Of a stretch of DNA of 64,000 nt, positions 21,248 through 59,002 are shown piece by piece (position 1 is the stretch's first letter; each line of letters begins with the position of its first letter). The position numbers were made by a program, and so were the translations under genes. Origin of the DNA: Nemertoderma westbladi (Eukaryota; Animalia; Xenacoelomorpha). The notes beneath the pieces were generated by a model. It had not been told where the DNA came from. It ran no database searches and was given only the letters and a program-made list of their open reading frames with translations. The stretch lies in contig JAUCBJ010006257.1 in NCBI GenBank assembly GCA_032718475.1, positions 8,743 through 72,742 on the forward strand, read 5' to 3'.

Positions 21248-21701
21248 GATCTGAACTGATATGAGTGGAGCGAATATTGGATTTTACTTGGAATTATGCT
21301 TAAGAGTTACGACCTACTAAATTCAGAGGGATTCTCGGAATTATAATGTCCATAGGCCTCTATGCTGTAAGTAGTTGGTAGACAAACCCGTCACCATATC
21401 AAAGTACAACGCGATAATAACGCAAGCCGACATCACTATATAAATGGTCAATGGAACTGTAGGTGTGATTATATCTTATTAAAGTAAGAATGTAGGTTGT
21501 AATTAGACGACAGATATGATGGCTAAACTTCTATAATTTAAAATAAAGCTTTATTGTTTGAGACCTGTAGTGAAACATGTGATGGGATTCGAGCTCGTAC
21601 TTGTGGTCAGGGATATGTTGTGTGTCTGATACCGATAGTACGATAGTACATGGTAGAGGACGGTCTGTCAGTTTTAGGAAACTAAGCAACGTATTTGAAG
21701 A

Positions 21702-22245
21702 TATAATTATTTATTACATGGTAAAAAATGAGAACTTTTTTTACTATTCTCGAGGCATTTTATTTACCGAGCTCCAACGAGGTTAATAAAGGGTCGAGAG
21801 AATATTGAATTTCCATAGTTACTGCGATTCAAATTACTGTATTCTTCAAGTCATGATGCTGCCTAACTCAATGTTAAATAATTTAGTGTTCTCGAATATT
21901 TATTACGTAATAACTAGAGAGCTGCTTAACTACATACACCAATATTGAATATTTTGGAGTACCTCTTGCAGACACTAAAGTTGCAATAACTTTTGAGTTT
22001 TTGCTTTTGGGATTTTGCTCAAATTACTTGCAAACAACAACATCGATGCTCTTTCAACACATGTAATAAAATTTAAGAAATTCCACCAAAATATTTTATT
22101 TTACTTTTTTCGCCGGAAAAAAGGAAAATTATTATAATCATAAAAAAAGTAAAATCAATACAATCCGTTTGGTTACTTATTTCCCTGGAGAAAATTACTT
22201 TTATTTTGGGGTACATTCGAACCAAAAAGTAACAATTTAAGAATA
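21702..22245 (+). mobile_element. Dispersed repeat copy A (putative non-autonomous DNA element); second copy at about 45141-45849
   Basis: Shared blocks in the same order and orientation, e.g. actattctcgaggcattttatttaccgagctccaacgaggttaataaa, ttccatagttactgcgattcaaatta, gcagacactaaagttg, aagaaattccaccaaaa, gtaacaatttaagaata. Copy A lacks about 140 bp present in copy B. Confidence 0.8.
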
Positions 22246-22540
22246 CAAATTCATTCGTTATTTTATGAAAATAAGTTAGTAGTTGTTATTGGTTTAGTTC
22301 TATCAAAGCATGTTTATCGTAGGAAAAGTCCAATCTTTATTCCTTAAAAGCCGACTATAAATCAGTTAATTTATATTATTATTATTCCAGTTGCATTAAC
22401 AGCTCAATACCAATTTGTATATTTACATACTACCGTAGAAGGCATTTTGAAACTGGTCTACACTCTACTCTGAGACTGATATTCTTTAACAATGAGTAGG
22501 GCCTAATCTCGCCAGTCGCGTTAACTGCAAGAACAACGAC

Positions 22541-23587
22541 ATGAATATAACCGGTACTAAGATTCGCGTCGAAACCGACGAGGTTATAAAGATACTCGCC
22601 AAGGACTTCAACCATCATACGTCATCCATGACGTCACTGAACAGCTATGAAGATATTAACTACTTGGTTCCCACAGCAACGGGGAAATTTGTGTTGAAAA
22701 TTTCGAATCCCAGAGACTCTAAGAATGCCAATTTAATGGACGGATTAACTGAAGTTATGATTCATTTAAGAGATCGAGGTGTTGTGTGTCCCGTACCGCA
22801 ACGTTCTACAGGAGGAGATTATATTGTGTACCGCGAATTCCTCGACAAAAACAACCAATCACATCAATGCGCAGTTCGGCTTCTCTCTTACGTAGAAGGG
22901 GAGATATTATTTAAAGCGTCAGTAATAACAGACAACCTGTTGAAACAGCTGGGCGGATTTCTCGCGGATATTGATAAAGGGTTGATGACGTACACTCATC
23001 CGGGTGTTACGTCACGCACAGATTTTGATTGGGACATGAGGAATGCGCAACGAATGCGAAAATATATTGAATATATTCCAGAACCGAATCGAAGGCAACT
23101 CATTACTAACGTCTTGGATAGATTCCTGGAAAAGTTTGCAATTCATCAAGTTAATATGACGGGGGGGATTATTCACGGCGACTTTAATGGCCATAACATT
23201 TTAGTTGATGAAGATTGTAAAATGCGTGGCATTCTAGATTTTGGTCACACAGTAAATTCCTTCCTAGCATTTGACCTAGGAATCGCTATAATGTATATTT
23301 CTAAGGAATTATTTAGCAAGTACGATGAAGAACGCTTTCTGAATGCACCACGTTACTTCCTCCAATCATATTGCGCGAAGATAACCCTCAACCAATCAGA
23401 TTTGGAAATGGTTGTCGTAGCAACAATGATGCGTTATGCAATGTCTTTAACTAAAAGCTGGTACAACCTAACGTTGGATCCGGATAATATTTATTTATTA
23501 GACACAGAACGGGGCGGCGGTTGGAAATGCCTCCAATTATTGGCTGATCAGGACGCTGATGCGTTACTTCGACGGTGGATGGCGTAG
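22541..23587 (+). CDS. HYKK: Hydroxylysine kinase-like protein (APH/choline kinase fold), single coding exon, 348 aa
   Basis: N-terminal SYEDINY...KFVLKISN and VRLLSYVEG resemble animal HYKK/AGPHD1. Catalytic motifs IIHGDFNGHNILV and GILDFG are present. Length matches the family. Confidence 0.82.
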   Translation: MNITGTKIRVETDEVIKILAKDFNHHTSSMTSLNSYEDINYLVPTATGKFVLKISNPRDSKNANLMDGLTEVMIHLRDRGVVCPVPQRSTGGDYIVYREFLDKNNQSHQCAVRLLSYVEGEILFKASVITDNLLKQLGGFLADIDKGLMTYTHPGVTSRTDFDWDMRNAQRMRKYIEYIPEPNRRQLITNVLDRFLEKFAIHQVNMTGGIIHGDFNGHNILVDEDCKMRGILDFGHTVNSFLAFDLGIAIMYISKELFSKYDEERFLNAPRYFLQSYCAKITLNQSDLEMVVVATMMRYAMSLTKSWYNLTLDPDNIYLLDTERGGGWKCLQLLADQDADALLRRWMA

Positions 23588-23891
23588 TGAGTGACTACCG
23601 TACCGCATTTATTGATAAACAACTAAACAATTATTGCTCGTAAACTGTGTAAACAGTTAGACATTAATTAATTACATAGGCCCTAATTATTTTTCTAAGA
23701 CTTTAACTGACTTAAGTTCGAGTCACACAATCACATGAGCTTTTCACTTTCAATTAAAAGATTTAACACATGGTAGCCTGAGGACGAACTCAGAAAAACA
23801 GTCAACTTTCAACATTTATTTATAGGAAGGGATCTAGGGGTCTTTACCTCGAATGATAAGTTTATTTTACCGAAAATAACTTATCTTTTAT

Positions 23892-23938
23892 TGGCGCAAT
23901 AGTCTCGGCTTCCACCTCTAGGGCCCAGGTTCGAATCC
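23892..23938 (+). promoter_or_regulatory. Pol III type-2 internal promoter-like motifs (A box TGGCGCAATAG at 23892; B box GGTTCGAATCC at 23928)
   Basis: The B box is a perfect match to GGTTCGANNCC. The A box is close to TRGCNNARYGG. The spacing is tRNA-like. Confidence 0.55.
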
Positions 23939-23941
23939 GTC

Positions 23942-23984
23942 ACCACGCTGATGAGACCCAGTAAGGTCGAAACGCGTACGTGGT
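23942..23984 (+). ncRNA. Type I hammerhead ribozyme with minimal, palindromic stem III; predicted cleavage after GUA (A23978)
   Basis: ACCACG-CTGATGA-GACC-cagtaa-GGTC-GAAA-CGCG-TA-CGTGGT. The core CUGAUGA/GAAA/UH is intact, stem I is ACCACG/CGTGGT, stem II is GACC/GGTC, and stem III is formed by the palindrome ACGCGT. Confidence 0.9.
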
Positions 23985-24770
23985 TTGGAGAGATATGAGA
24001 TATTAATTTCAAGAAAAATTACGCGATTCCTAAATTTGTACACTACCCGGTTAAAAAAAAAAGTACGCATGTGATGGGATTAGTCCTACAATTGCGCCAA
24101 TAAAAGATAAGTTATTTTCGGTAAAATAAACTTATCATTCGAGGTAAAGACCCCTAGATCCCTTCCTATAAATAAATGTATAATAACAAACACCTCGAAA
24201 AATACAGCTTGCTAACACATTGTTACTATCAATAACTTTCAACATGAAACTTTCAAAATCCCCTTTAGTCATCTTCTTATTGAAAGTTGGCATTTTTAGT
24301 ATTGACAACCAATCAAAATTAACAACTATTTACCGACTAAGTATTGTGCAACAATATAGCTAATTTTTTTTTATGAGATGAAAGTTGAAAGTCTATATGT
24401 GAACCAAGTTGATAAATGAGCACTGCACGGATCCGCAGATTACACCCTAAAAAGGTAAAACAAGTTGACTTCTATAGAGACAATGTTTAATGATAGAAAC
24501 CGGATACTGATCCGTATCCCTGACCCTGCTCCAGGTAAGGAGTTACAATAATGTAAAACGAATTCCTGTTTATGGCTTGATAATAATTTAATTTGTTTTG
24601 TAAATAAAGATGATAATAAAGATATAATCTTCAGCTCCAAATAGGCTCTCATCAAGCAACACGATAAATCGCGCAAAATTAATCAGACGTCTATATTTTA
24701 TTATTAATAATTATTATTTAATTAATAATACTTGCAGCCACCAAGTAATGAAAAACGATCTTATTTTTAA

Positions 24771-26377
24771 GGGGAGTAGTACAGGCATCCAATTTTTTTT
24801 CAAATTTTTTCCTGTTTCATCTAGAGCAAATTTTTATCAAGATTCCAAATTTGAAAACCGTTTAGCAAGATCTGCCTTACCTCTCGAGATATGGCTGTCT
24901 GTCCGATTGACTGTCGGTTTGTCCATCAGTATGTCTGTCAGTCAATAAAAACTATCTATCTAAAAAAATTACCTCTATGGGTTTTCGTGGTCGTTGACTT
25001 CATTTCTGATGTCATTCTTCAAATTTGGCCGCGTCGTTTCTGTCTGTATGCCTGTCAGTCTCTCCGTCAAAATATATACGACAGACTGACTGCCAAACAT
25101 ACAATTTGGAAGCCATCAAATGTTAAATCTGACCATCGAAATGAATTATGCGACCAGGAAAACCCCTCTAGCTAAACTTTTTACTAGATTGTATGACCTT
25201 TTCTTATATTTGACGGACAGATTGTCGGATGGTCAGAAAAAAGACCGACAGACAGACATACATACAGACTAACAAAATTTCATTAAAAGTGAAAACTGAC
25301 CTCAGAAATGAAATCAGCGACCACGAAAACCCCATAGCAAAATTCTTAGCATGGTTTTGTGCTTTCTTATGGCTAGGTATATATTGACAGTCATTATTTC
25401 ATAATAACAGACAGTTTTTGCGCGGGAAGGTTCAAATTTTAACTGGATTTTTCTCAAAATGAGATTTTAGAATTCTTTCGGTACATTTTTTCAGCTGCCA
25501 TTTGATTTATATACTTGTAATATTCTCACTAGGATCATTTTTTACCGTAGAATAAGAAGGTATACCAATTAGTTGTGTGAGCGTATTCAATTCCGCCACA
25601 CTAAACCCCATAAAGTTGGCGTTAAGCAATATTGGAACTACAAGGTTGATTACCAATCAACCTTGTATCACCCCAATAAGCGGGGCAACAAACCCCAAAG
25701 GGAAACACACACAGCGGGGGTCAGAGGTTACACCTCCGGGAGGGAGGGAATGACAGCAGCAGGGGGAACACTCCCAGGGAGATGAGAGGGTGAGAAGTGA
25801 GCTATTAGCCAATGGGGGGAAGGCATCGGCTGAGTAGTGTAATGCGGCCAACCGTGCAATATATATTACCAGTCTGTTGTATCATTCCATTCAGTTATCC
25901 CAGTACAGTCACGGCAGTACGGTTACAGTTAAGACCGTCACCGCCGTCACCAATCACTATCATTTATCCATATACCGGTTAACTGTGCTATCTACTGTTA
26001 TCTCAGTACAATATATCATTAATAACGACACTGGAACAACAACTCTTTCCATTCACACGGCGGGGACGCGTACGTAAACAACACCGGATAAACCGGGATC
26101 CTCTCGGATCCCGTCACAAGTTGTTTTATATTATTTACCTATAAGTACCGCATTGTGATTTTAATGTTTGTGACACAAATTATTTGGCTATTTTTTTTTA
26201 AATTTGGTCTTTAAATAGAAATTCAAAATAAACCAATTGGTCTTCCTGAAAGCCCGTTAAATTCCGGTTGAATGCAAGAACAGTTGGCCTATAAAGTAAT
26301 CTAAAGCGTTCCAAAAGTGTACGGAGGCTTAATAGTAGTTTGTATGGATATTGGATAAAATGCCTGTACTACTCCCC
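24771..26377. mobile_element. Non-autonomous DNA transposon with TTAA TSD and 18-bp TIR GGGGAGTAGTACAGGCAT (Kolobok-like)
   Basis: ttaa|ggggagtagtacaggcat at 24767 and atgcctgtactactcccc|ttaa ending 26381. There are also internal inverted repeats (about 24979 and 25297). A TTAA TSD with RR termini fits Kolobok rather than piggyBac, which has YY termini. Confidence 0.8.
25576..26118. mobile_element. Solo LTR (543 bp) nested in the Kolobok-like element
   Basis: TGTGA...TCACA termini with an exact 5-bp TSD AGTTG (25571-25575 and 26119-26123). CCAAT-like and TATA-like motifs lie at about 25807-25868. Confidence 0.8.
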
Positions 26378-28870: not shown

Positions 28871-30325
28871 AAACAGTGCTGCCCCATCTAGGGATCGCAC
28901 CAGGTCCTTCTGGATGGGGATCCCAAACAATGCTGCCCCATCTGGGGATCAAACAAGGACTACCTGGATCGGGAGCCCAAACGGTGCTGCCCCATCTAGG
29001 GAACGAACCAGTGCCTTCAGGATGGGGATCCCAAACAGTGCTGCCCCATCTAGGGATCGAACCAGGGCCTTCTGGATGAGGAGCCCAAACGGTGCTGCCC
29101 CATCAAGGGATCGAACCAGACGTTCTGGATGAGGAGCCCAAACAGTGCTGCCCCATCTAGGGATCGAACCAGGGCCTTCTGGATGGGGAGCCCAAACAGT
29201 GCTGCCCCATCAAGGGATCGAACCAGACGTTCTGGATGAGGAGCCCAAACAGTGCTGCCCCATCAAGGGAACGAACCAGTGCCTTCAGGATGGGGATCCC
29301 AAATAGTGCTGCCCCATCTAGGGATCGAACCAGGGCCTTCTGGATGGGGAGCCCAAACGGTGCTGCCCCATCAAGGGATCGAACCAGACGTTCTGGATGA
29401 GGAGCCCACACAGTGCTGCCCCATCTAGGGATCGAACCAGGGCCTTCTGGATGGGGAGCCCAAACAGTGCTGCCCCATCTAGGGATCGAACCAGGACGTT
29501 CTGGATGGGGAACCCAAACAGTACTGCCCCATCTAGGGATCGAACCAGGACGTTCTGGATAGGGAAGCCAAACAGTACTGCCCCATCTAGGGATCGAACC
29601 AGGGCCTTCTGGATGGGGAGCACAAACAGTGCTGCCACATCTATGGATCGAACCAGGACGTTCTGGATGGGGAACCCAAACAGTACTGCCCTATCTAGGG
29701 ATCGAACCAGGACGTTCTGGATAGGGAAGCCAAACAGTACTGCCCCATCTAGGGATCGAACCAGGGCCTTCTGGATGGGGAGCCCAAACAGTGCTGTTCC
29801 ATCTAGGAATCGAATCAGGGCCTTCTGGATGGGGAGTCCAAACTGTGCTACCCCATCTAGGGATCGAACCAGGACGTTCTGGATGGGGAACCCAAACAGT
29901 ACTGCCCCATGTGATCGAACCAGGACGTTCTGGATGGGGAACCCAAACAGTACTGCTCCATCTAGGGATCGAACCAGGGACTTCTGGATGGGGAGCACAA
30001 ACAGTGCTGCCCCATCTAGGGATCAAACCAGGACTTTCTGGATCGGGAGCCCAAATGGTGCTGCCCCATCTAGGGATCGAACCAGGGCCTTTTGGATGGG
30101 GAGCCCAAACAATGCTGCCCCATCTAAGGATATAACCAGGGCCTTCTGGATGCGGAGTCCAAACAATGCTGCCCCATCTAGGGATCGAACCAGGGCCTTC
30201 TGGATGGGGAGTCCAAACAATGCTGCCCCATCTAGGGATCGAACCAGGGCCTTCTGGATGATGAGCCCAAACAGTGCTGCTCCATCTAGGGATCGAACGA
30301 GGACCTTCCGATGATGAGTCTAAAA
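28871..30325 (-). repeat. 54-bp minisatellite (about 27 copies) derived from a tRNA 3' half; each unit carries a B box on the minus strand
   Basis: Minus-strand unit: TTTGGGCTCCCCATCCAGAAGGCCCTGGTTCGATCCCTAGATGGGGCAGCACTG. The 54-bp period is seen directly and as an 18-aa period in the ORF track. Confidence 0.92.
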
Positions 30326-35344: not shown

Positions 35345-36644
35345 TTACTCCATAATTTCTGCCGATTGCGCTCCGATCTGCGACTCAGACAACGCATCGA
35401 TAATATCCAGTAACAATTCCCTCCGCAAAGTTCGAACTTTCGGCAACTTGGCGATCCTCTTAAAATGGCAAACGATAATATTGAGACAATGATTCTTCAT
35501 ATCGAGAGCGCCTATCGAGTCAGTAGCCTCCAGTATGTGGATCACGTTCCCCGTTGTTATATTAGTTTCTAGATTGTGTTTACAGAACGCCTGTAGTCGG
35601 TTGTTTGTGAATCCGTAGAAATGTGGCGCCGCAAACAAATAAAGAGAGTCTTCTGGGGGCATCGAAGCGTCGTCGTAATAAATATACCGCAGGAGGGAGT
35701 TAAACGATTGTAGAGTCGGGATTGTGTCGCCTATACTGATGTCTACCTCCCCACTGGACGGCATATAGGAGCGAAACAACGCCTCGAAGTAGGCGGATCG
35801 CGCCGCTAGAATGGCCTTATGAGCGGGAACCGCTGCCCCGTTGACCCGCAGAACCACGTCGGTAAAGTCACGACCTACACTGCCGCACAGGAAGGTCTTT
35901 AGGTCCAACTCGAGGGAGGGCGTCTTGGTATCGGAGTCGGAGTGGGATTCCGGAGCTGCGAACAACGGCCCGAAACGATCGCGTCGGATAACCTCCACCA
36001 ACAACTCCTTCGGGAGACTCTCGAACTCTCGCATCATTATAATTCGGTTGTAGTTGGATTCCTTGATGATGAATCGCATACAACGTTCCTTAAGGTTATC
36101 CAACTCCAGCTGGTTGCCCTTTACGAGTATGAGCAACACGTTGTCCAGACATATACAGTTGTCAAGGTACTGTATGCAGAGCATCTCGAGTCCTTTTAGT
36201 TGCAGACAGATAGCCAGATGGTAGACGTCGACCATGAGTATAACGGCGGTTGGGGAACATCTGTCCTCGCTGGATACCGCCCCGTTGGTTGCTATGCCGT
36301 CCGTGTAGATGTACATTAGCGCCATACGGAAGGGTTTAACTTCTACTTTGTTGGGTAGAACTACGCGCAGTGGTTCTACTGCAGTAGATGCATCGTTATC
36401 GGCGTCAGGACCCAGATGCTTCTCGACGCTACTTCTACGCGCTTTCATCGCTTCTACAATCGTGGCTCGCAGGTAATGCGACCGGGCCGCCACCATGGCG
36501 ACGTGGGCTGTGACCACGGCCCCGTTGGGCCCCAGTACGAACTCGAGGTCTCCCAATTGACTCCCGTCTAGCAGTTTAGAGAAGTCCGACTTTAGTGTAG
36601 ATTTGGGGTAGGACGACAACTGGAAACGGTAGATCTCTCCGCTC
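35345..36644 (-). CDS. LZTR1: LZTR1 coding exon 2 (end of Kelch region, two BTB-BACK domains)
   Basis: Acceptor tctgtttag|G at 36645/36644. Splicing gives NNIR-SGEIYRFQLSSYPKSTL. BTB motifs AHVAMVAARS and AHKAILAARSAYFEA and the segment MPPEDSLYLFAAPHFYGF match LZTR1. Confidence 0.95.
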
Positions 36645-36956
36645 CTAAACAGAATAGCGTGGTACGGTACAATTACAGAAACGTGGCTAATTAACTAATT
36701 AAATTAATTTATTAACAACAAAACATCAGAAGAAAGAAAGTATGGTATTCAATATATCAATTATTTCATTGTAAATCTTTAATATATATAGAATGATGAA
36801 TTGTATATTTTTCTTTGATTCTTTCTTGACTAATTTTCGGTCTCTTGATGACAGGATGGCCTAGATGTAATGAAAGAATGTGTTACCTTGGCTGTTACCG
36901 GTAGTTACTTTGGCATATTAAATCCTTTGACCAAATATAAAATGCAAGAAAAGCAA

Positions 36957-37178
36957 ACAGTCGGCCGAGGCCGGAGGCGACCCGAAGGATCCTCCTTCGA
37001 TAATTGCTACCCGAGGGTAGGAGTGGCAGTGGGGTGGGGGGGCTAATCCTATCCTTAGTTTTTGCTTCCAGTAATTCAACTGATCCCCAGTGGATAAAAG
37101 GCTGAATGGACCCTGGTGGGAGTCGAACCTACAACCAATAGATTGCAGGCCCGGCGCTCAACCAACTGAGGTACCCCC
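36957..37178 (-). mobile_element. tRNA-derived SINE within the LZTR1 intron (same sense as the gene)
   Basis: Minus strand: A box TACCTCAGTTGG, B box GGTTCGACTCC, followed by TTCAGCCTTTTATCC and a GC-rich 3' segment (GGATCCTTCGGGTCGCC) reminiscent of invertebrate SINE bodies. Confidence 0.75.
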
Positions 37179-37334
37179 AAAAGTCAAATTATTTAAAGAG
37201 AAACAAATGATTGCGGCTTGGGGTTATAAAATCATATCCATACAAATTACGTCCCAACAACTGAACAACGTTGATTTGAGTTCTTAAACTTCGCGTATCA
37301 GAGAGTTTGAATAAACATACCGTATTAAACTTAC

Positions 37335-38359
37335 CTAATGTTGTTCTCCACGGTCCCCCCGAATATAAACAGCGCGTCGCCAACTACGGCAGCCGAGTGA
37401 AACAGCCTACCGTTGGGGGTCTCGCTAACCGAGGACGTCTCGTTAACCGACCAGGAATAGGCGTCCAGATCGTAGCGGTACAGCTCGTTGGGATGACTGT
37501 TACCGGAACCGCCTCCGAACACGTACAGATACCTACCGTGGTGAACCATCGTGTGTCCATACCGCCGCGATGGAGGGGGCCAAAGGTCTGGTAACAGATG
37601 GTCCGTAGTTAACTTCATCCACTGTCTGTTGGAGAAACGAAACTGAAACAAATTATTAGCTATTTTAGCTCCAGATTGGCCGCTGAATACGAAAATAGAA
37701 TCGCGAGCTACGGTTATAGCGAAGTTACAACAAGAAGGAGGAACCTCACCCCAGTGGTCCACTCTCTCCCAGCGCCTAGTAGGGGTCGAACTCTTCACCT
37801 CTGGATTCAAACTCAACGTCCACATGTCATTTAGTCGCGCGCTTCCATCGTACCCAGCGAATATCCACATCTTGTCGTCGTAAATGACAGCCCCGTGCGC
37901 GGAACGAGCCACCGGGGTCGTTCCTTCTATAACCCGCTCGTTCCACTGCCCCGTCGAGAACTTATACTCGAAGAGATCGTTCTTATTGCGTAGATTTGAG
38001 TTGGAGTAGATGTCGCCGGTGTATCCGCCGAATATAAACATGGATTGTTGGAACACCACGGCGGAATGGTGGTACCGCGGTGCCGGTGGGGTACCCGTTG
38101 CAAACGCACGTCCCCAAGACAACTCCCGGCAGTCGAATCGCAAGAGATCGTTTAGCATTTTGTGTCCGTCGTCCCCCCCGAACACGTACAGGGCTTCCTT
38201 GTAGGCGACCATCGTGTGTTTGCTGCGTCTCGCGCCCACAAATTCTGCACACTCCGGCATCTGTCGCCATTTATGGATTGTCTCATACGGACCGAAATCA
38301 AGCGTGAGACTCTCCGCGCTACCCCAGATAGAGGTTGGCGCAACTTGTCCCGTTTCCAT
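37335..38359 (-). CDS. LZTR1: LZTR1 coding exon 1 (Kelch repeats); intron 36645-37334 (690 bp, phase 2); spliced protein about 774 aa
   Basis: [32 protein letters not shown] and the Kelch GG motifs ([22 protein letters not shown]) match LZTR1. Donor AG|GTAAGT at 37335/37334. Confidence 0.95.
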
Positions 38360-38689
38360 GACAACACCGCAAATTAAAGCACAATTTTTTAGCCTTACCG
38401 GTAGACCTACCAGAGTTAATCAGTTAATTGCGATTTGACCCAAACCAGAACATCAGTTGTTGTTGTTGTTAGGTTGTCCACTGACCATTGCTGTACACTT
38501 CAGCCCCCCGCCTGTCAGCAGCGCCAGCACCAACTGCCAACTGTCAGGCAGCCGTCATCGTCAGTTTACGGTTATTAAATAAAGCAATAAAAGGATACCA
38601 ATTAAAGTCATACCAAAATCGATGAAAATTTCACCAAAAAAAAAATATTATATTACACCATTTTAAATAATGTGACCAAAAAAAAATTA

Positions 38690-45140: not shown

Positions 45141-45849
45141 ATATAATTATTTATTACGGGAAAAAAGTAGAACTTTTTTCACTATTCTCGAGGCATTTTA
45201 TTTACCGAGCTCCAACGAGGTTAATAAATAACGGGTCGAGAGAATATTGAAAAAAAATGTTCTACATTTTTTTCCAAGTTATACGTAGTTTTATTCTTAA
45301 AGCATGGTACTTTTTTGTTGCTTAATTATTTAATAAAAGACTAAAAGAGCAATTGTTACAAAATAAATTGAACTGTAGTATTTTACTATATTGCTTCCAT
45401 AGTTACTGCGATTCAAATTATTGTACTCTTCAACTCCTGACGCTGCCTTACTCAATGTTAAATAATTTAGTGTTCTAGAATATTTATTACGTAACTAGAG
45501 AGCCGCTTAACAACATAAACCAATATTAGATATTGAGTTCCGTTTTGGAGTTCGCCACGCAGACACTAAAGTTGAAATAACTTTTGAGTGAGTAAATGGA
45601 TTTTGCTCAAATTACTTGCAAACATTTTCTACTTCGATGCTCTGTCAACACATGTAATAAAAATTAAGAAATTCCACCAAAAATATTTTAACTTACCTTT
45701 TTCGCCGGGCGGGAAAAAAGTAAAATCTATGCAATCCCATGGGTTACTTTTTTTTACGAGGTAAAAACCCTTTTTACCCTTTTGTACCCTTTTTCTATAT
45801 TGGTATACCAATGTTGCAACACATTTGCAACAGTAACAATTTAAGAATA
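45141..45849 (+). mobile_element. Dispersed repeat copy B (longer copy of 21702-22245)
   Basis: Collinear similarity with copy A over several hundred bp. Confidence 0.8.
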
Positions 45850-47241: not shown

Positions 47242-50200
47242 CTATTTCGGCACACGATACAAGTCGTAAAGAACGTCCAACATTCCTCCCACACTCCACG
47301 CCTGTATGGGGCAGGAGAAGGGACACGACTCTCCATTCTTATTGGTCAGTTCGGGCAACCCGTGCCAAGGACTCGCCTCCAGTGCGGCCTGTTGCCGCGA
47401 AAGGCGCTGCTTCGCGTAGCGGAATGCGGCGTCCAGACACCCGGGATCGGCGGCCTCCATGCGAGCCGCGACGGCAAGTTTAGCTCGAAGGAAGAAGGCG
47501 GTGAGCCACAACCACTCGGGGCCCTGGTGGTAGTTGAACCCGCGAGCCACATCGGGATCAGATGAATCGTCGGACTGGTCGTAGTACGGATGGTACTTCC
47601 AGTCCCCGGGGTCCAGACTCCGCATTCCGAGAGGAGCCGCCAGCTTCTCTTCCGCGAGCCCGAGCGCCCGCCACGCGCGGCTCGCCGTGAACATCTCGGG
47701 CCCGGTCACCATAGCGACGAGGAAGTTGGGCCGCAGTCGGTGGTCGTCCCACGGACGGGAGGAGCCAACCGAGTCGCGGTAGATCCCGCGGAGGTTGGAG
47801 TACGGCTCCAACGTACCCGTCGGATCCACCCAGAACAGCGGCTCGAAACTCCGATCGATGAGCGCGGCCCATTGAGCGAATGTAACCTCCTCCGCGCCGA
47901 CCTTTATCCCGGGGCGCGGATACCTCCCGTCGCCATGACAACCGGCCAACCAACCCACGACCCCGCGACACAACCCGACCAGCTCGACCGCCGTCCCATC
48001 CCGCGGCGTCGCCGGAACCCCGCGGGTCCCCGCCCGTTCGCTCTCGCCCATTTTATCCATCCAGGTTCCGCAATTGTGTTCGTTCCCCCCGTAGGGGAAC
48101 CCAGTGGCCCAATCGATCCCGGCTGTCACTACGAATCCCTCCCACTTCATGTGAGCGTCGATCCCTGATCCCGCCCCCCGTTCGATAAACTCGATCCCGT
48201 TCCCGTGGCTCTCCAACCCGCGCTGCATCACCTCGTACAGAAACTCCTCCTTATTCTCTTCGTCTTCCCACATCGAAACAACGTGGGACTTCAATATCTC
48301 GAAGCCGCTTGGGGCCATCTCGCAGTAATCTCTGATGCAGTACAACCACCACCAGATGGCGTCCCTACAGTTATACCGAGCGTGGGTCCCGGCCCCGAGG
48401 AGATTCGGTATCAAACCGTGTCGCATAGTCCCTCCGTAGGCGAGGATGAGATCCCGAGCCTCGTCCCACCGACCCGTGACCAGCAGCAGACCGCGGGCCG
48501 CTATGAACGTGTCGCGACCCCAGTTACGCATAATACCGGAAGCGAAGTGAGGCAGACCAGCGGCCATGGAGGGGAGACGTTGTTCGAGGAGACCAGAAGT
48601 CGGGTTCAATCGGGTGGGAAGTCGAGGTAGACTGGAGGAAACCGCGGGGAGGGGAGCCGAATCAACCACTCCCATCAGCTGGACGCTCCCGAGGGAGAGC
48701 TCCTTAACAAAGGTCGAACCTTTCTTAACGAAATCGCTCATATTCGAGTACATAACGTCGAGGATGTTTATGAAAGCGCCGGTGACTATAGCATCGAAGT
48801 AACACGGGATGAGGTAGCGAGGAAGGAGTTTAAGTCGGTCGAATACGTTGGCGAACCAGGCGCCGATTGCCTGAGTGCGAGGGTTCATTGACAATCGGTT
48901 GGATATGTAGCCGGGCATCCAGTCACCGTCGCGGAGATTGTCGCAGAACGGATGGCCGAGATCGTTACCGATACGGAGCTGGGAGAGGACCGACACGAAC
49001 CCGAAGAGGCCGCAGTACGGGAGGTCCCCGTGTCGCGGCACGTTGTAGGCGGAGATCCCGTTACCGTCCGAGAGCTCCTCGTCGCTGCAACGGTAGAGAA
49101 CGCGGTTCAACTCAGACAGACTGAGCTCCCGGACGAGGTTGACAAAGTCGGCGGGGCGGAGGTCCTGCGGGGAGTCGGCCACGGCTGACCGGTAACCGAA
49201 GCGGACCAGTTCGTTACGGATCGACTGGACGGCGGACGCCGAGGTCGGGGCTAGGGAAACCTTGAGGACGAAAACCGAACCCGGAGGGAAGTCGGTGAAC
49301 TCAAGTTCCTGCACGGCCCCATCCGTTTCCGCCTTCACCTCGAACATCCCGCTGTCGGAAACCGCCACGTTATCCCTAATTGCCAACCGATACCCCGCCA
49401 GTCCGTTTATATACGAGGCATCGCGACGGTACGACGGGGCGTACTTCCTCGTCTCGAGTTTGGCCTCGAGAAGGACTTTATCGACGCGCCCCGGGACGCA
49501 GAGAGATGGAACGTTGGTCGGGGTGTCTGGGGGCTGCGTGAACGAGGTGCGGGCCACCAGAACCACGGAGTGGTGCAGCGACGGACAATGTCGCGTCACC
49601 GCCACAATGTCCGCATCTACTTGGTCAACATAAACCTCGTTGAACCCGCGAGTAGACAACATCTGGTGTAGGTGGTTCAAGGCTTTCTTCCCCTTTAGGA
49701 TTCCGTTGTTTATATTAACTACCCCCGGCGTCTCCGCCCCGGAGTTCTTCCCTCCCATAACCGCCTCTCCTTCCCAGTTGTTGTACATCCGATTCTCGGT
49801 AACCACGTGGATCTGATGTGGAACCAACTCGTCGTAGCCCCGGTTGCTCCCGGTCGAGCAGCAGCCCATTGCGACGATAGCCGCCGTCGGCAAGGCGTCG
49901 TAAACGGAACGGCGTGCGATCACCGCCGGGTTGTCGTGCGTCTGGTCCATAAACACGGCGTGGGCCACGGACGGTACGAGGGGCCGCACGCACGGCTGTA
50001 TGAAGGAGCCGACCGGATCGCCACCGTACCGGTGAACCAGTCGGCCTTCCTCGTGGCTGTCCGGCGCCGACATCGCCTCCCGGATCAGCGAGTTGATCCC
50101 GAGTCGATTCACGAAAACGTTGTCCACGTCGGAGGAGCCGGTGAAGAGTTCCGCAACGACGTAGAGATCGGGGTTGACCGCCCGACCGCAGTCCAGCAGC

Positions 50201-51237
50201 CACGATGCGAAGTCCAACGGCGTGCTGTGGCAGTTGTCCAGACGGATTCCGTCGAAGGCCCCCGCGGTCAGCTCCATGTAGCGCCGCATCCGGTCCCACA
50301 GAGCGGGACAGTCGTCCCGCGATGTCCCGTACCTCAGCTTTATGCTGTCCCCCCAGGCGATCAGCTCGCGCCGCAGGTAGACCAGCCCCGGTGCCGCGGC
50401 GAAGTTCCGCAGCGGATCGTCGTTCATGACCCACCCGTTGTGAGCCATAACGAGCGCGGCTCGGCTCGGCTCCCTCGCCATGCGTTCCTCCTCATCCACC
50501 GACGTCGCCTCCCATCTGTGGTAGAAGTACGGCGTCGCTATTGGGTGTTGCTTGGAGACGGGCCCGCATTTGGGGCCCCCATCCTGCACGTAGAAGTATT
50601 GGGTAGACCGGGCCACACACTCAACCGCCTGCAGCAGATGGTCCCAAACATCGGTTTCCTTGGCAATGTTAAGTGCATTCAGATGCTCTTTAAACGCATT
50701 CACGGATAACTTCTGGCGCTCAGTCTCCGAAATGTTCTCCCCTCTGGAAATGTTAAACGCCCTGAGTGCGAGCTCTAAATCCACAGTGCATGAGAGTCGC
50801 ATGTACTGGGGGTCCTGCACAATGGTCACTGCGTCGGCAGACTCAGCTGGTGTACTCGCACCCCCCAGCTGAGACACTCGGCTAGCGAATTCCTTGACAG
50901 AACTCTCCACGTTCACCTGGTAGAACTGCGACAGTTTGTACGTCGGTATCACGACGTCTCTCAGGGCCGCTTGGAGCGCGGAGATGTGGTCCGCGCTGGT
51001 TATGTTGGACGGGACGTTGCGGAACTCCCACTGGCCTTGGGAGACCTCGACCCCGAAATGGTAGAGGATGCGGTCGAGGAGGTAGGCGGGTCGGAGGTAG
51101 GGGGAGTTGGCGAGGTTGAATGCGCACTGGGGTTCGGCGGTGATCCAAGCCGAGTCGTTGGAGGTGTGGTTGAGAACCACGTCGCAGATGGAGAGGACAC
51201 CGTGATCGCGTCGCAGTCGATCTAGGAACGAAGTGAC
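47242..51237 (-). CDS. AGL: Glycogen debranching enzyme (4-alpha-glucanotransferase / amylo-1,6-glucosidase), coding exon 2
   Basis: Motifs DVVLNHT, GIRLDNCHSTP, VVAELFTGS, MDQTHDN, AAGLPHF...RNWGRDTFI, GTWMDKMGES, GFNYHQGPEW and GLPELTN...SCPIQAWS. Acceptor tttgtttcag|GTC at 51238/51237. Confidence 0.97.
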   Translation of the reverse strand, partial: VTSFLDRLRRDHGVLSICDVVLNHTSNDSAWITAEPQCAFNLANSPYLRPAYLLDRILYHFGVEVSQGQWEFRNVPSNITSADHISALQAALRDVVIPTYKLSQFYQVNVESSVKEFASRVSQLGGASTPAESADAVTIVQDPQYMRLSCTVDLELALRAFNISRGENISETERQKLSVNAFKEHLNALNIAKETDVWDHLLQAVECVARSTQYFYVQDGGPKCGPVSKQHPIATPYFYHRWEATSVDEEERMAREPSRAALVMAHNGWVMNDDPLRNFAAAPGLVYLRRELIAWGDSIKLRYGTSRDDCPALWDRMRRYMELTAGAFDGIRLDNCHSTPLDFASWLLDCGRAVNPDLYVVAELFTGSSDVDNVFVNRLGINSLIREAMSAPDSHEEGRLVHRYGGDPVGSFIQPCVRPLVPSVAHAVFMDQTHDNPAVIARRSVYDALPTAAIVAMGCCSTGSNRGYDELVPHQIHVVTENRMYNNWEGEAVMGGKNSGAETPGVVNINNGILKGKKALNHLHQMLSTRGFNEVYVDQVDADIVAVTRHCPSLHHSVVLVARTSFTQPPDTPTNVPSLCVPGRVDKVLLEAKLETRKYAPSYRRDASYINGLAGYRLAIRDNVAVSDSGMFEVKAETDGAVQELEFTDFPPGSVFVLKVSLAPTSASAVQSIRNELVRFGYRSAVADSPQDLRPADFVNLVRELSLSELNRVLYRCSDEELSDGNGISAYNVPRHGDLPYCGLFGFVSVLSQLRIGNDLGHPFCDNLRDGDWMPGYISNRLSMNPRTQAIGAWFANVFDRLKLLPRYLIPCYFDAIVTGAFINILDVMYSNMSDFVKKGSTFVKELSLGSVQLMGVVDSAPLPAVSSSLPRLPTRLNPTSGLLEQRLPSMAAGLPHFASGIMRNWGRDTFIAARGLLLVTGRWDEARDLILAYGGTMRHGLIPNLLGAGTHARYNCRDAIWWWLYCIRDYCEMAPSGFEILKSHVVSMWEDEENKEEFLYEVMQRGLESHGNGIEFIERGAGSGIDAHMKWEGFVVTAGIDWATGFPYGGNEHNCGTWMDKMGESERAGTRGVPATPRDGTAVELVGLCRGVVGWLAGCHGDGRYPRPGIKVGAEEVTFAQWAALIDRSFEPLFWVDPTGTLEPYSNLRGIYRDSVGSSRPWDDHRLRPNFLVAMVTGPEMFTASRAWRALGLAEEKLAAPLGMRSLDPGDWKYHPYYDQSDDSSDPDVARGFNYHQGPEWLWLTAFFLRAKLAVAARMEAADPGCLDAAFRYAKQRLSRQQAALEASPWHGLPELTNKNGESCPFSCPIQAWSVGGMLDVLYDLYRVPK

Positions 51238-51319
51238 CTGAAACAAAAACATACTTGTGAGGATCCAGACAACCCGTTATTACAACACACTGCAACAAAC
51301 GAAGAAATAAGTTTCAACA

Positions 51320-54300
51320 ATAATTATTCCCTATTATTGCATTTATTTCCTAATGGTAGTATTTCATTCCAGTTGCTATATTCCCTATTGCTATAACTAC
51401 GTATCGCTTTTATTTCACATTGCTATTATTGTTTCCTTCCAGTTGTCAATTTCTTATTGCTATTGTTTTTCTGTATAGGAAATATCACTGCCAATAGGAA
51501 ATAAAAGCATAATAATTCCATAATTATAATAGCATAATAATTTCACATCGCTATTATTTCCTAAATTGCTAATACTTCCTATTGGTATCAGGGTATTATT
51601 TCTTCCTACAGTCCTATTGATTATTTCCTAAAGGCTATTAGTTCCTATTGCTATTATTTCCTTTTGCTATTATTTCCTATTGCTATTATTTCTTATTGCT
51701 ACTATTTCCCATTGCTATTATTTCATATTCCTATTATTTCCTATTCCTATTATTTCCCATTGCTATTATCTCCTATTGCTATTATTTCCTATTAATATTA
51801 TTTCCTATTCCTATTATTTCCTATTGCTATTATTTCCTATTCCTATTATTTCCCATTCCTATTATTTCCTATTCCTATTATTTCCCGTTGCTATTATTTC
51901 ATATTCGTATTATTATTTCATATTGGTATTATTTCCTATTGGTACCGGTATTATTTCTTATTGCTATTATTTCCTATTGCTATTATTTCCCATTGCTATT
52001 ATTTCCTATTGCTATTATTTCTTATTGCTATTATTTCCTGTTGCTATTATTTCATATTCGTATTATTTCCTATTGCTATTATTTCTTATTGCTATTATTT
52101 CCCATTGCTATTATTTCCTATTGCTATTATTTCTTATTGCTATTATTTCATATTAATATTATTTCCTATTGCTATTATTTCTTATTGCTATTATTTCCTA
52201 TTGCTATTATTTCCTATTCCTATTATTTCCTGTTGCTATTATTTCATATTCGTATTATTTCCTATTGCTATTATTTCTTATTGCTATTATTTCCCATTGC
52301 TATTATTTCCTATTGCTATTATTTCTTATTGCTATTATTTCATATTAATATTATTTCCTATTGCTATTATTTCTTATTGACGTTATTTCCTATTGCTATT
52401 ATTTCCTATTGCTATTATTTCATATTCGTATTATTATCTCATATTGGTATTATTTCCTATTGGTACCGGTATTATTTCTTATTGCTATTATTTCCTATTG
52501 CTATTATTTCTTATTGCTATTATTTCCTATTGCTATTATTTCTTATTGCTATTATTTCCCATTGCTATTATTTCCTATTGCTATTATTTCTTATTGCTAT
52601 TATTTCATATTAATATTATTTCCTATTGGTACCGGTATTATTTCTTATTGCTATTATTTCCTATTGCTATTATTTCTTATTGCTATTATTTCCTATTGCT
52701 ATTATTTCTTATTGCTATTATTTCCCATTGCTATTATTTCCTATTGCTATTATTTCCTATTGCTATTATTTCTTATTGCTATTATTTCCCATTGCTATTA
52801 TTTCCTATTGCTATTATTTCTTATTGCTATTATTTCTTATTGATGTTATTTCCTATTGCTATTATTTCCTATTGCTATTATTTCATATTCGTATTATTAT
52901 TTCATATTGGTATTATTTCCTATTGGTACCGGTATTATTTCCTATTGCTATTATTTCTTATTGCTATTATTTCCCATTCCTATTATTTCCTATTCCTATT
53001 ATTTCCCGTTGCTATTATTTCATATTCGTATTATTATTTCATATTGGTATTATTTCCTATTGGTACCGGTATTATTTCCTATTGCTATTATTTCTTATTG
53101 CTATTATTTCCTATTGCTATTATTTCCTATTCCTATTATTTCCTGTTGCTATTATTTCATATTCGTATTATTATTTCATATTGGTATTATTTCCTATTGG
53201 TACCGGTATTATTTCATATTGCTATTATTTCATATTGGTATTATTTCATATTGGTATTATTTCCTATTAATATTATTTCCCATTGCTATTATTTCATATT
53301 GGATTGGTATTATTTCCTATTGGTACCGGTATTATTTCTTATTGCTATTATTTCCTATTGCTATTATTTCTTATTGCTATTATTTCCTATTGCTATTATT
53401 TCTTATTGCTATTATTTCCTATTGCTATTATTTCCTATTCCTATTATTTCCCGTTGCTATTATTTCCTATTCGTATTATTTCCTATTCCTATTATTTCCC
53501 ATTGCTATTATTTCCTATTGCTATTATTTCCTATTGCTATTATTTCCTATTGCTATTATTTCCTATTGCTATTATTTCCTATTAATATTATTTCCTATTC
53601 CTATTATTTCCCATTGCTATTATTTCCTATTGCTATTATTTCCCATTGCTATTATTTCCCATTGCTATTATTTCCTATTGCTATTATTTCCTATTGCTAT
53701 TATTTCCTATTGCTATTATTTCCTATTGCTATTATTTCCTATTAATATTATTTCCTATTCCTATTATTTCCCATTGCTATTATTTCCTATTGCTATTATT
53801 TCCCATTGCTATTATTTCCTATTGCTATTATTTCCCATTGCTATTATTTCCTATTGCTATTATTTCCTATTGCTATTATTTCCTATTCCTATTATTTCCC
53901 ATTGCTATTATTTCCTATTGCTATTATTTCCCATTGCTATTATTTCCTATTGCTATTATTTCCCATTGCTATTATTTCCTATTGCTATTATTTCCTATTG
54001 CTATTATTTCCTATTGCTATTATTTCCTATTAATATTATTTCCTATTCCTATTATTTCCTATTCCTATTATTTCCTATTGCTATTACTTCCTATTCCTAT
54101 TATTTCCCATTCCTATTATTTCCTATTCCTATTATTTCCCGTTGCTATTATTTCATGTTCGTATTATTATTTCATATTGGTATTATTTCCTATTGGTACC
54201 GGTATTATTTCTTATTGCTATTATTTCTTATTGATATTATTTCCTATTGGTACCGATATTATTTCCTATTGCTATTATTTCCTATTGCTATTATTTCCCA

Positions 54301-57300
54301 TTGCTATTATTTCCTATTGCTATTATTTCTTATTGCTATTATTTTCTATTCCTATTATTTCCTATTCCTATTATTTCCCGTTGCTATTATTTCATATTCG
54401 TATTATTATTTCATATTGCTATTATTTCATATTGGTATTATTTCATATTGGTATTATTTCCTATTAATATTATTTCCCATTGCTATTATTTCATATTGGA
54501 TTGGTATTATTTCCTATTAATATTATTTCCCATTGCTATTATTTCATATTGGATTGGTATTATTTCCTATTAATATTATTTCCCATTGCTATTATTTCAT
54601 ATTGGATTGGTATTATTTCCTATTGGTACCGGTATTATTTCATATTGGTATTATTTCATATTGGTATTATTTCATATTGGTATTATTTCCTATTAATATT
54701 ATTTCCCATTGCTATTATTTCATATTGGATTGGTATTATTTCCTATTAATATTATTTCCCATTGCTATTATTTCATATTGGATTGGTATTATTTCCTATT
54801 GGTACCGGTATTATTTATTATTGCTATTATTTCCTATTGCTATTATTTCTTATTGCTATTATTTCATATTGCTATTATTTCTTATTGCTATTATTTCCTA
54901 TTGCTATTATTTCCTATTGCTATTATTTCCTATTGCTATTATTTCCTATTAATATTATTTCCTATTCCTATTATTTCCTATTGCTATTATTTCCTATTCC
55001 TATTATTTCCCATTCCTATTATTTCCTATTCCTATTATTTCCCGTTGCTATTATTTCATGTTCGTATTATTATTTCATATTGGTATTATTTCCTATTGGT
55101 ACCGGTATTATTTCTTATTGCTATTATTTCTTATTGATATTATTTCCTATTGCTATTATTTCCCATTGCTATTATTTCCTATTGCTATTATTTCATATTG
55201 GTATTATTTCCTATTAATATTATTTCCCATTGCTATTATTTCATATTGGATTGGTATTATTTCCTATTAATATTATTTCCCATTGCTATTATTTCATATT
55301 GGATTGGTATTATTTCCTATTAATATTATTTCCCATTGCTATTATTTCATATTGGATTGGTATTATTTCCTATTGGTACCGGTATTATTTCATATTGCTA
55401 TTATTTCATATTGGTATTATTTCATATTGGTATTATTTCCTATTAATATTATTTCCCATTGCTATTATTTCATATTGGATTGGTATTATTTCCTATTAAT
55501 ATTATTTCCCATTGCTATTATTTCATATTGGATTGGTATTATTTCCTATTGGTACCGGTATTATTTCCTATTGGTACCGGTATTATTTCCTATTCCTATT
55601 ATTTCTTATTGCTATTATTTCCTATTGCTATTATTTCTTATTGCTATTATTTCCTATTGCTATTATTTCTTATTGCTATTATTTCCTATTGCTATTATTT
55701 CCTATTCCTATTATTTCCCGTTGCTATTATTTCATATTCGTATTATTATTTCATATTTCCTATTGCTATTATTTCTTATTCGTATTATTATCTCATATTG
55801 GTATTATTTCCTATTGGTACCGGTATTATTTCTTATTGCTATTATTTCCTACTGGTATTATTTCCTATTGCTATTATTTCATATTGGTATTATTTCATAT
55901 TGGTATTATTTCCTATTAATATTATTTCCCATTGCTATTATTTCATATTGGATTGGTATTATTTCCTATTAATATTATTTCCCATTGCTATTATTTCATA
56001 TTGGATTGGTATTATTTCCTATTAATATTATTTCCCATTGCTATTATTTCATATTGGATTGGTATTATTTCCTATTGGTACTGGTATTATTTCATATTGC
56101 TATTATTTCATATTGGTATTATTTCATATTGGTATTATTTCCTATTAATATTATTTCCCATTGCTATTATTTCATATTGGATTGGTATTATTTCCTATTA
56201 ATATTATTTCCCATTGCTATTATTTCATATTGGATTGGTATTATTTCCTATTGGTACCGGTATTATTTCCTATTGGTACCGGTATTATTTCCTATTCCTA
56301 TTATTTCTTATTGCTATTATTTCCTATTGCTATTATTTCTTATTGCTATTATTTCCTATTGCTATTATTTCTTATTGCTATTATTTCCTATTGCTATTAT
56401 GTCCTATTCCTATTATTTCCCGTTGCTATTATTTCATATTCGTATTATTATTTCATATTGGTATTATTTCCTATTGCTATTATTTCATATTCGTATTATT
56501 ATCTCATATTGGTATTATTTCCTATTGGTACCGGTATTATTTCTTATTGCTATTATTTCTTATTGCTATTATTTCCTATTGCTATTATTTCATATTCGTA
56601 TTATTATTTCATATTGGTATTATTTCCTATTGCTATTATTTCATATTCGTATTATTATCTCATATTGGTATTATTTCCTATTGGTACCGGTATTATTTCT
56701 TATTGCTATTATTTCTTATTGCTATTATTTCCTATTGCTATTATTTCATATTCGTATTATTATCTCATATTGGTATTATTTCCTATTGGTACCGGTATTA
56801 TTTCCTATTGCTATTATTTCCTATTCCTATTATTTCCCGTTGCTATTATTTCATATTCGTATTATTATTTCATATTGGTATTATTTCCTATTGCTATTAT
56901 TTCATATTCGTATTATTATCTCATATTGGTATTATTTCCTATTGGTACCGGTATTATTTCTTATTGCTATTATTTCTTATTGTTATTATTTCCTATTGCT
57001 ATTATTTCATATTCGTATTATTATTTCATATTGGTATTATTTCCTATTGCTATTATTTCATATTCGTATTATTATCTCATATTGGTATTATTTCCTATTG
57101 GTACCGGTATTATTTCTTATTGCTATTATTTCCTATTGGTACCGGTATTATTTACTATTGCTATTATTTCACAGCTATTATTTCCTATTGCTATTATTTC
57201 CTATTCCTATTATTTCCCATTCCTATTATTTCCTATTCCTATTATTTCCCGTTGCTATTATTTCATATTCGTATTATTATTTCATATTGGTATTATTTCC

Positions 57301-58995
57301 TATTGGTACCGGTATTATTTCTTATTGCTATTATTTCTTATTGCTATTATTTCCTATTGCTATTATTTCATATTCGTATTATTATTTCATATTGGTATTA
57401 TTTCCTATTGCTATTATTTCATATTCGTATTATTATCTCATATTGGTATTATTTCCTATTGGTACCGGTATTATTTCTTATTGCTATTATTTCTTATTGC
57501 TATTATTTCCTATTGGTACCGGTATTATTTACTATTGCTATTATTTCACAGCTATTATTTCCTATTGCTATTATTTCCTATTCCTATTATTTCCCATTCC
57601 TATTATTTCCTATTCCTATTATTTCCCGTTGCTATTATTTCATATTCGTATTATTATCTCATATTGGTATTATTTCCTATTGGTACCGGTATTATTTACT
57701 ATTGCTATTATTTCACAGCTATTATTTCCTATTGCTATTATTTCCTATTCCTATTATTTCCCATTCCTATTATTTCCTATTCCTATTATTTCCCGTTGCT
57801 ATTATTTCATATTCGTATTATTATTTCATATTGGTATTATTTCCTATTGGTACCGGTATTATTTCTTATTGCTATTATTTCTTATTGCTATTATTTCCTA
57901 TCGCTATTATTTCTTATTGCTATTATTTCCCATTGCTATTATTTCATATTCGTATTATTATTTCATATTGCTATTATTTCCTATTGCTATTATTTCTTAT
58001 TGCTATTATTTCCTATCGCTATTATTTCTTATTGCTATTATTTCCCATTGCTATTATTTCATATTCGTATTATTATTTCATATTGCTATTATTTCCTATT
58101 GCTATTATTTCTTATTGCTATTATTTCCTATTGCTATTATTTCACAGCTATTATTTCCTATTGCTATTATTTCATATTCGTATTATTATTTCATATTGCT
58201 ATTATTTCCTATTGGATTGCTATTATTTCCTATTGCTATTATTTCTTATTGCTATTATTTCCTATTGCTATTATTTCACAGCTATTATTTCCTATTGCTA
58301 TTATTTCACAGCTATTATTTCCTATTGCTATTATTTCATATTCGTATTATTATTTCATATTGCTATTATTTCCTATTGCTATTATTTTATATTGCTAAGT
58401 TGCTATTATTTCCTATTGCTATTATTTCACAGCTATTATTTCCTATTGCTATTATTTCACAGCTATTATTTCCTATTGCTATTATTTCCCATTGCTATTA
58501 TTTCCTATTGCTATTATTTCCTATTCCTATTATTTCCTATTGCTATTATTTCCTATTAATATTATTTCCTATTGATATTATTTCCTATTGCTATTATTTC
58601 TTATTGCTATTATTTCCCATTGCTATTATTTCATATTCGTATTATTATTTCATATTCGTATTATTATTTCATATTGGTATTATTTCCTATTGGTACCGGT
58701 ATTATTTCTTATTGCTATTATTTCTTATTGCTATTATTTCCTATTGGTACCGGTATTATTTCCTATTGCTAATATTTCCTATTGCTATTATTTCTTATTG
58801 CTATTATTTCCTAATAATATTATTTCCTATTGATATTATTTCCTATTGCTATTATTTCCTAGTTATTATTTCCTATTCCTATTATTTCCCATTGCTATTA
58901 TTTCCTACTGTTATTATTTCATATTCATTCGTATTATTTCATATTGGTATTATTTCCTATTGGCATTATTACTGGTATATATTATTTCATATTGC
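51320..58995. repeat. 16-bp AT-rich satellite TATTATTTCCTATTGC with variants (about 450 copies) inside the AGL intron
   Basis: Directly visible, with degenerate edges. It produces spurious stop-free ORFs in all three + frames. A degenerate continuation lies at about 60515-60745. Confidence 0.98.
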
Positions 58996-59002
58996 GGTAA
59001 TA

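Follow-up and report, generated by a model that had tools for sequence, protein, structure and literature searches.

The combination of a tRNA-derived head and a hammerhead ribozyme in one repeat is already known from the Sm-alpha element of Schistosoma (PMC2770079 and PMC6765202, in extract). In Sm-alpha and Sj-alpha the head, with its Pol III-type promoter, leads directly into a type I hammerhead, and Sm-alpha is a high-copy element with a unit of about 335 bp that needs tandems for its propagation (PMC2770079, PMC6765202 and PMC8490949, in extract).

Metazoan non-LTR retrozymes are likewise small and ribozyme-bearing: they are non-coding units of 170-400 nt with a canonical type I hammerhead, found in tandem or circular form, with Penelope-like elements (PLEs) being proposed as their mobiliser (PMC7229834 and PMC7761336, in extract). 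Promoters reportedly do not appear to be present in them (PMC7761336, in extract), and the accessible part of a 2026 preprint (bioRxiv 10.64898/2026.07.22.740005) makes no mention of tRNA, Pol III or a promoter. Both the canonical geometry of metazoan type I hammerheads and the 'minimal' geometry of PLEs (min-HHR) are defined in PMC4209133 (in extract), the latter having a helix II of 7-8 bp, a short helix I and an extra base between positions 9 and 10.1.

PLE insertions carry a signature that consists of an adjacent inverted, 5'-truncated copy, a tail at one end and a target-site duplication (TSD) of 8-10 bp (PMC3846280 and PMC8557442, in extract). The purified PAc protein nicks and extends both strands, and two internal A/C-rich starts define the tail; it mostly uses uncleaved RNA and primes without homology (PMC11167929). 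A precedent for a short element that uses PLE enzymes is the non-autonomous MRC1 of Chlamys, which belongs to a clade without canonical hammerheads and for which the available text describes no tRNA head (PMC8557442, in extract). The capture of a small-RNA head by a retroelement other than a LINE is represented by Helenus, an LTR-type, tRNA-bearing non-autonomous element (PMC10886601, in extract).

The window analysed here is a stretch of 64,000 nucleotides from Nemertoderma westbladi (contig JAUCBJ010006257.1), which begins with 21 kb of a 27/55-bp satellite and contains intron-poor genes and large satellites. The glycogen debranching enzyme gene (47242-61605) has an exon of 1,344 codons and is split by a 9.7-kb intron full of a 16-bp satellite, and LZTR1 (35345-38419), with two long exons, matches hemichordate and frog at 66-68%. 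A 54-bp minisatellite of 26.7 copies at 28871-30308 carries a B-box-like T-arm on the minus strand and an ARAGORN tRNA-Gly call at 30170-30240, and is a tRNA-derived satellite. Other repeats include a MITE-like element at 24979-25332, which has inner repeats and whose inverted arms of 48 bp are 85% alike, and two copies of another interspersed repeat at 21701-22129 and 45141-45726, which are 83-91% alike.

Positions 23816-24233 of the window hold one recent insertion of a high-copy, non-coding, tRNA-headed hammerhead element of about 411 nt, probably made by a PLE reverse transcriptase with a GIY-YIG endonuclease. On the best reading, the element is an Sm-alpha-like, tRNA-headed non-LTR retrozyme that was moved by a Penelope-like element. 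The insertion is real, young and mechanistically informative, and it varies on kinds already known without founding a category of its own. The features of the locus are as follows.

22496-23587, plus strand: single-copy, intronless APH-family kinase ORF, presumably hydroxylysine-kinase-like, ending 228 bp upstream of the insertion
23804-23815, plus strand: left TSD, 12 bp, identical to 24234-24245
23816-23900, minus strand: inverted, 5'-truncated second copy of the 3' part of the element, exact reverse complement of 24091-24175 (85 bp)
23901-24233, plus strand: direct copy, 5'-truncated, with tRNA-head remnant, B box, hammerhead, body and a tail of about 55 bp
23901-23938, plus strand: tRNA-like head remnant (anticodon-arm region and B box), the A box being cut off in this copy
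23936-23989, plus strand: type I hammerhead, whose distal stem I overlaps the B box
23990-24179, plus strand: body, with an internal A tract, a hairpin and the first preferred 3' end near 24175-24185
24180-24233, plus strand: A/C-rich tail of about 55 bp, in the direct copy only, with the second preferred 3' end at 24228-24235
24234-24245, plus strand: right TSD, 12-bp direct repeat of 23804-23815

The limits of the insert are given by an empty site. Contigs of two public runs from different studies, X1 and X4, join 23803 to 24234, with 430 bases of the window skipped and 12 letters fitting on either side; the insert is therefore the 418 bp at 23816-24233, flanked by 12-bp TSDs. There is one empty-site contig per run, and both have single-copy depth (31.1x in X1 and 43.7x in X4), the kinase ORF serving as the single-copy control. 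The filled allele is the window itself and was found in none of the five public runs compared, of which only X1 and X4 span the flanks; in X2 the single-copy flank of the insertion has no cover. The insertion is recent and polymorphic and is missing from other individuals, and the empty site and the TSD bear out the young age proposed in the preliminary description of this DNA. The same description had placed the element at 23812-24179 and had overlooked the 12-bp direct repeat; the direct copy extends 54 bp beyond the right arm, to 24233-24235, and the contig depth of the element drops to single copy at 24241. Minor depth bumps at 23728-23803, 24262-24335 and 24402-24492 represent other low-copy repeats adjoining the insertion site.

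The inverted repeat was described as perfect over 89 bp, and it is indeed free of mismatches at 23812-23900 and 24091-24179, with no outward extension; inward extension gives 92 bp at 99%. It appears to begin at 23812 because the last four nucleotides of the left TSD also fit the inverted end of the element (microhomology). Minor alleles at two positions, 24146 (where the allele makes up about 13% of X1 depth) and 24170, are shared by the left arm and the direct copy, which fits a single template. Between the arms, the A10 tract was located at 24053-24062 as reported, and about half of the family has five A fewer. No second copy or tandem of the element was found within the 64-kb window.

The family was studied from contigs of the public runs, which were placed at 80% likeness. 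In summed contig depth, the element bins (23917-24240) exceed the flank 65-210-fold in X4 and 7,000-17,000-fold in X1; as overlapping contigs are summed, this depth expresses abundance, at least tens to hundreds of copies, and not copy number. Two preferred 3' ends, at about 24171-24185 and 24228-24235, have unlike flanks (agreement 0.43-0.52) among the ends listed. Loose ends at 24171 occur in at least 16 contigs of X1 and at least 23 of X2, with a consensus that matches on to about 24183; those at 24228 in at least 8 contigs of X1, and those at 24235 in at least 23 of X1 and at least 24 of X2. They were also observed in X6 (24171, 24228 and 24235) and X4 (24185 and 24233). A poly(A) or simple-repeat tail is absent at 24233, the two 3' ends being present instead, while the 12-bp TSD, the empty site and the unlike 3' flanks are those of dispersed copies, as in SINEs.

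Of 25 joints in all, the 15 listed comprise the empty site, a strand switch, seven internal deletions and six joints that begin within the inverted arm, each at a different point; every one rests on one short contig. Five of the seven inverted or strand-switch joints in this set have at least 30 letters on the short side. Arm lengths differ among the nine mapped inverted joins, six of which duplicate part of the direct copy while three do not. Core and arm are contiguous in contigs of the family.

A contig of 441 nt from run X5 consists of 24147-24235, 81 other letters, 23900-24171 and five letters. Its ends overlap by 30 nt and therefore close it into a cycle of 411 nt (330 + 81). Since the label of X5 names another organism and its RNA nature is a guess, the cycle is a hint of circular or multimeric RNA, and a tandem would look alike. 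In the low-depth DNA run X6 no cycle was obtained: the assembly breaks off at 23931 and branches at the 3' ends. A joint in X1 that links the 3' end to 23932 (depth 129) represents a partial tandem in DNA. The contigs of the runs showed no long arrays, and most copies appear dispersed and truncated. At 411 nt the unit slightly exceeds the 170-400-nt range of non-LTR retrozymes, with which it shares the non-coding character, the type I hammerhead and a PLE as the proposed mobiliser, and whose tandem or circular form it may share as well.

Three deep contigs of X4 hold more distant sequences. One of 1,831 nt (401x) matches 23903-24011 and another of 1,914 nt (1,031x) matches 24014-24087; each carries about 1.7 kb of other sequence, and the two break at nearly the same place, 24011/24014. 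An autonomous relative, or an old interrupted copy, may be split between them. The 401x contig is 89% alike, and the invariant core positions 23950, 23970 and 23977 are changed in it, which leaves its hammerhead core dead. The third contig, of 600 nt (512x), contains a diverged part of the element within 23903-24227.

A complete hammerhead with a GUA site was found exactly where the preliminary description had placed it, at 23942-23984. The core lies at 23948-23954, GAAA at 23969-23972 and GUA at 23976-23978, and cleavage is predicted after 23978, leaving a 5'-OH at 23979. Stem I comprises 6 bp (23942-23947/23979-23984) and is followed by a distal helix (23936-23939/23986-23989); stem II (23955-23968) has 4 bp and a 6-nt loop, and stem III has 2 bp within the palindrome ACGCGT. 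With this core, a helix I of 6 bp, a helix II of 4 bp, a short palindromic helix III and an NUH site, the geometry is canonical type I under the definitions of PMC4209133 (in extract) and not 'minimal', as it had first been called; the lengths of helices I and II are not those of min-HHR and the extra base is absent. The Rfam model Hammerhead_HH9 matches 23932-23999 with 28.7 bits (E 4.3e-5), and the suggested comparison with Rfam thus yielded a match that does not reach the gathering score of 52, at which Rfam gave none. The full hammerhead descriptor has one match in the 64-kb window and none in 300 dinucleotide shuffles, on both strands, of the 26,567 non-satellite bases of the window.

When the hammerhead is folded in isolation, stems I and II have pair probabilities of 0.65-1.0. 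At equilibrium, stem I has a pairing probability of 0.01-0.05, in the whole insert as well as in the 335-nt copy, owing to a rival helix that displaces it, so that in this model cleavage would need to be co-transcriptional or dimeric. The cofold minimum is predicted to be a dimer with an intermolecular helix III (-32.9 kcal/mol). The hammerhead region has unremarkable MFE z-scores, between -1.3 and +0.4, and these were excluded from the support. No variants of at least 2% were found within 23942-23984 in X1 or X2, and about seven were found in the body; the family is so young that the invariance of the hammerhead is not a significant sign of selection. Position 23940 is A in all runs, which would add one pair to the distal stem I.

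The B box, GGTTCGAATCC, occupies 23928-23938 and is perfect, as had been stated. In X2, 14 contigs that reach upstream of 23900 share a head (agreement 0.91) that holds the A box TGGCCTAGTGG, 31 nt before the B box (the spacer was counted by hand in the X2 loose-end consensus). Upstream, this consensus goes beyond the expected tRNA start by about 9 nt. The family thereby has the A/B spacing of the SINE consensus, N30-35 (PMC8969392, in extract), and the present copy does not. An A-box-like 11-mer pointed out in the preliminary description has two mismatches to the consensus, lies 25 nt from the B box and straddles the inversion junction, being partly in the inverted fragment; the A box of the family itself lies upstream and was lost in this copy. 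Equally good look-alikes of the 11-mer arise at 16 of 170 possible truncation points, and it was rejected as a promoter box. The T4 run at 23886-23889, which had been raised as a caveat to Pol III transcription, is present and, like another at 23865, sits within the inverted piece 23816-23900.

The head remnant resembles tRNA-Gly of annotated phage genomes weakly (83% over 41 nt, E 0.2), and tRNA-Gly accounts for the top 21 of the 25 head matches listed (41 in all, many of them redundant). The truncated head gave neither an Rfam tRNA match nor an ARAGORN call. Compared by description only, in the extracts available, the element differs from Sm-alpha in its 411-nt unit and in a head whose best, weak match is tRNA-Gly instead of being tRNA-Gln-like. 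Its A and B boxes distinguish it from the non-LTR retrozymes, and the possession of a small-RNA head by a non-LINE retroelement is a feature in common with Helenus. A run of T residues serves as the terminator of Pol III. The hairpin of the body, near 24102-24135, holds a T4 run at 24115-24118 that is invariant in the family. Transcription by Pol III could terminate there, short of both 3' ends, so that the mobile RNA may be a read-through product.

The structure of the insert suggests the following course of events. Tandem or partial-tandem masters would be transcribed by Pol III from the A and B boxes, or by read-through, and the hammerhead would cut the multimers to monomers, which may circularise. 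The PLE enzyme would nick the two target strands 12 nt apart, giving two 3' overhangs, each of which would prime cDNA at one of two starts about 55 nt apart, 24233 and 24175. One overhang would prime at 24233 and copy 333 nt, through the intact cleavage site and into the head, and the other would prime at 24175 over a 4-nt match and copy 85 nt. Both cDNAs would then stop early and be joined head to head, at a point where the head and the inverted body share six bases, of which three would be kept. Since such a template spans the intact cleavage site, the RNA would have been uncleaved or re-ligated. The present copy, without the A box, is likely a dead end.

In agreement with insertions of EN+ PLEs and their pLTRs, the locus contains an adjacent inverted, 5'-truncated copy with outward 3' ends, a tail at one end only and a short TSD (PMC3846280 and PMC8557442, in extract). 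Two A/C-rich 3' end points, partial tandems, an AT-rich target and a type I hammerhead with a palindromic stem III are further points of likeness. Unlike EN+ PLEs, the element has no ORF, bears a tRNA head in place of a Pol II promoter and carries a canonical hammerhead; its tail of about 55 bp and TSD of 12 bp exceed the published 30-40 bp and 8-10 bp. Another difference is that both priming ends have 2-4 nt matches to the target, where PAc needs no homology (PMC11167929). In being short and dependent on PLE enzymes it would correspond to MRC1. For Sm-alpha no description of a Penelope-type inverted insertion, of such a tail or of an empty site was found, and an origin from RTE has been suggested for it (PMC1291365, in extract). 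A Pfam scan found no reverse transcriptase or GIY-YIG family in four long ORFs and 72 short frames of the window (72 of the 93 short frames of its non-satellite parts, the 21 that overlap genes or repeats being omitted), and the PLE ORFs sharing the hammerhead that had been envisaged were not found among these.

Other origins of the insert have to be weighed against this one. It is unlikely that the insert is the truncated end (pseudo-LTR) of an autonomous PLE with a tRNA-like promoter, with no separate short element, even though PLEs most often insert as 5'-truncated, inverted pLTR fragments (PMC8557442 and PMC4209133, in extract) and the 1,831- and 1,914-nt deep contigs of X4 contain diverged pieces. 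The X5 unit closes at 411 nt and leaves no room for an ORF, and a frame that opens within the hammerhead core meets a stop 15 codons on; the 401x contig resembles an old copy caught in another repeat, and the hammerhead is canonical as in retrozymes and not of the minimal PLE type (PMC4209133 and PMC7229834, in extract). An ordinary LINE-dependent SINE of the Sm-alpha type, whose 5' part was inverted by LINE twin priming, is an explanation of similarly low probability. Its 3' end would be expected to differ from the one observed, which has no poly(A) or simple-repeat tail, the A tract lying 170 nt inside, and 85 nt of the direct copy are present a second time in the inverted arm, which starts at a recurrent second end. 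L1 twin priming is not known to yield a duplicated inverted arm of this kind. A closed tandem or circular unit and a conserved sequence upstream of the tRNA start are also not SINE features; by contrast, the tRNA head, the A and B boxes, the 12-bp TSD and the 5' truncation are (PMC8969392, in extract), schistosome SINE-like elements have been suggested to derive from RTE elements (PMC1291365, in extract), and three of the nine mapped inverted joins are non-overlapping, as twin priming gives.

The perfection of the 89-bp inverted repeat, together with the lack of the filled allele in all five runs, might point to the capture of the ribozyme core by a foldback or MITE shell whose TIRs measure 89 bp, or to a fold-back assembly artefact, and either is highly improbable. 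The preliminary description had offered the shell and a Penelope-type inverted insertion side by side, and only the latter is upheld, by an arm that copies the element's own 3' part, by the TSD and by the empty site. The inverted repeat, being an inverted duplicate of the element's own 3' part, is therefore not a MITE shell. The empty-site joint, from which both arms and the core are missing together, refutes a MITE; the family runs 54 bp past the right arm, inverted arms have other lengths in other copies, and the TSD adjoins 24233, 54 bp outside the right arm, instead of lying directly outside the TIRs. Against an artefact stands the 12-bp TSD, since its agreement with the empty site is nothing that an assembly error would produce. 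Insertions of this kind mimic MITEs and will be misannotated.

The preferred reading, a tRNA-headed retrozyme inserted by a PLE, agrees with the earlier view of a mobile RNA that is non-autonomous, bears a ribozyme and has a tRNA-derived head. The word 'undescribed' used for it does not hold for the tandem unit of tRNA head and hammerhead, which is that of Sm-alpha, and may hold for the PLE insertion of such an element: no tRNA-headed element with a PLE insertion footprint was found described in the open-access literature, and repeat databases or subscription papers may contain such families. The family pattern had no matches in metagenome contigs. A looser pattern, combining a B box and a hammerhead, matched 10 viral and 112 metagenome loci (with full flanks for 80 of the 112), and 36 of these 122 pass the stem filter, nearly all with a long stem III and many in tRNA clusters. 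Only locus L115 among the 122 has a short palindromic stem III and an A box. Within L115:257-380, the A box at 257 and the B box at 300, with a spacer of 32 between them, are followed by a type I hammerhead, which has the same palindromic stem III as the element studied here and a compensatory pair in stem II; the tRNA-like head is unrelated, and a short tandem repeat precedes. In L006, L008, L014, L029, L052, L107 and about 25 more loci, a hammerhead with a long stem III immediately follows a tRNA gene, and many of these loci are phage-like tRNA clusters. Such hammerheads may be tRNA-processing ribozymes and are presumably already known.

For the host gene nearby, the ATTAAA at 23753 may end the kinase mRNA before the insert; if the transcript reads through, the insert is predicted to add an RNA duplex of 85-89 bp and a ribozyme. 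For the elements themselves, PLE mobilisation of retrozymes has been proposed from co-occurrence and sequence relationship (PMC7229834 and bioRxiv 10.64898/2026.07.22.740005, in extract), and an insertion footprint with an empty site is more direct evidence than co-occurrence. The filled and empty pair, with its 12-nt stagger, two cDNA starts and head-to-head join, provides an in vivo test of the two-strand, two-start model of PAc. A broader proposal, which is tentative, is that a class of 'Penelope SINEs' exists, in which self-cleaving RNA circles with a tRNA promoter replicate by PLE double priming in place of LINE priming, and that it arose repeatedly in invertebrates (in this genome, in L115 and probably in Sm-alpha). 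The present family would then be active now, with a circular template of 411 nt and an empty site that is known. As retrozymes are said to be without promoters, a tRNA head would answer how they are transcribed, and with it the concept of a SINE, so far tied to LINEs as partners, would come to include PLEs.
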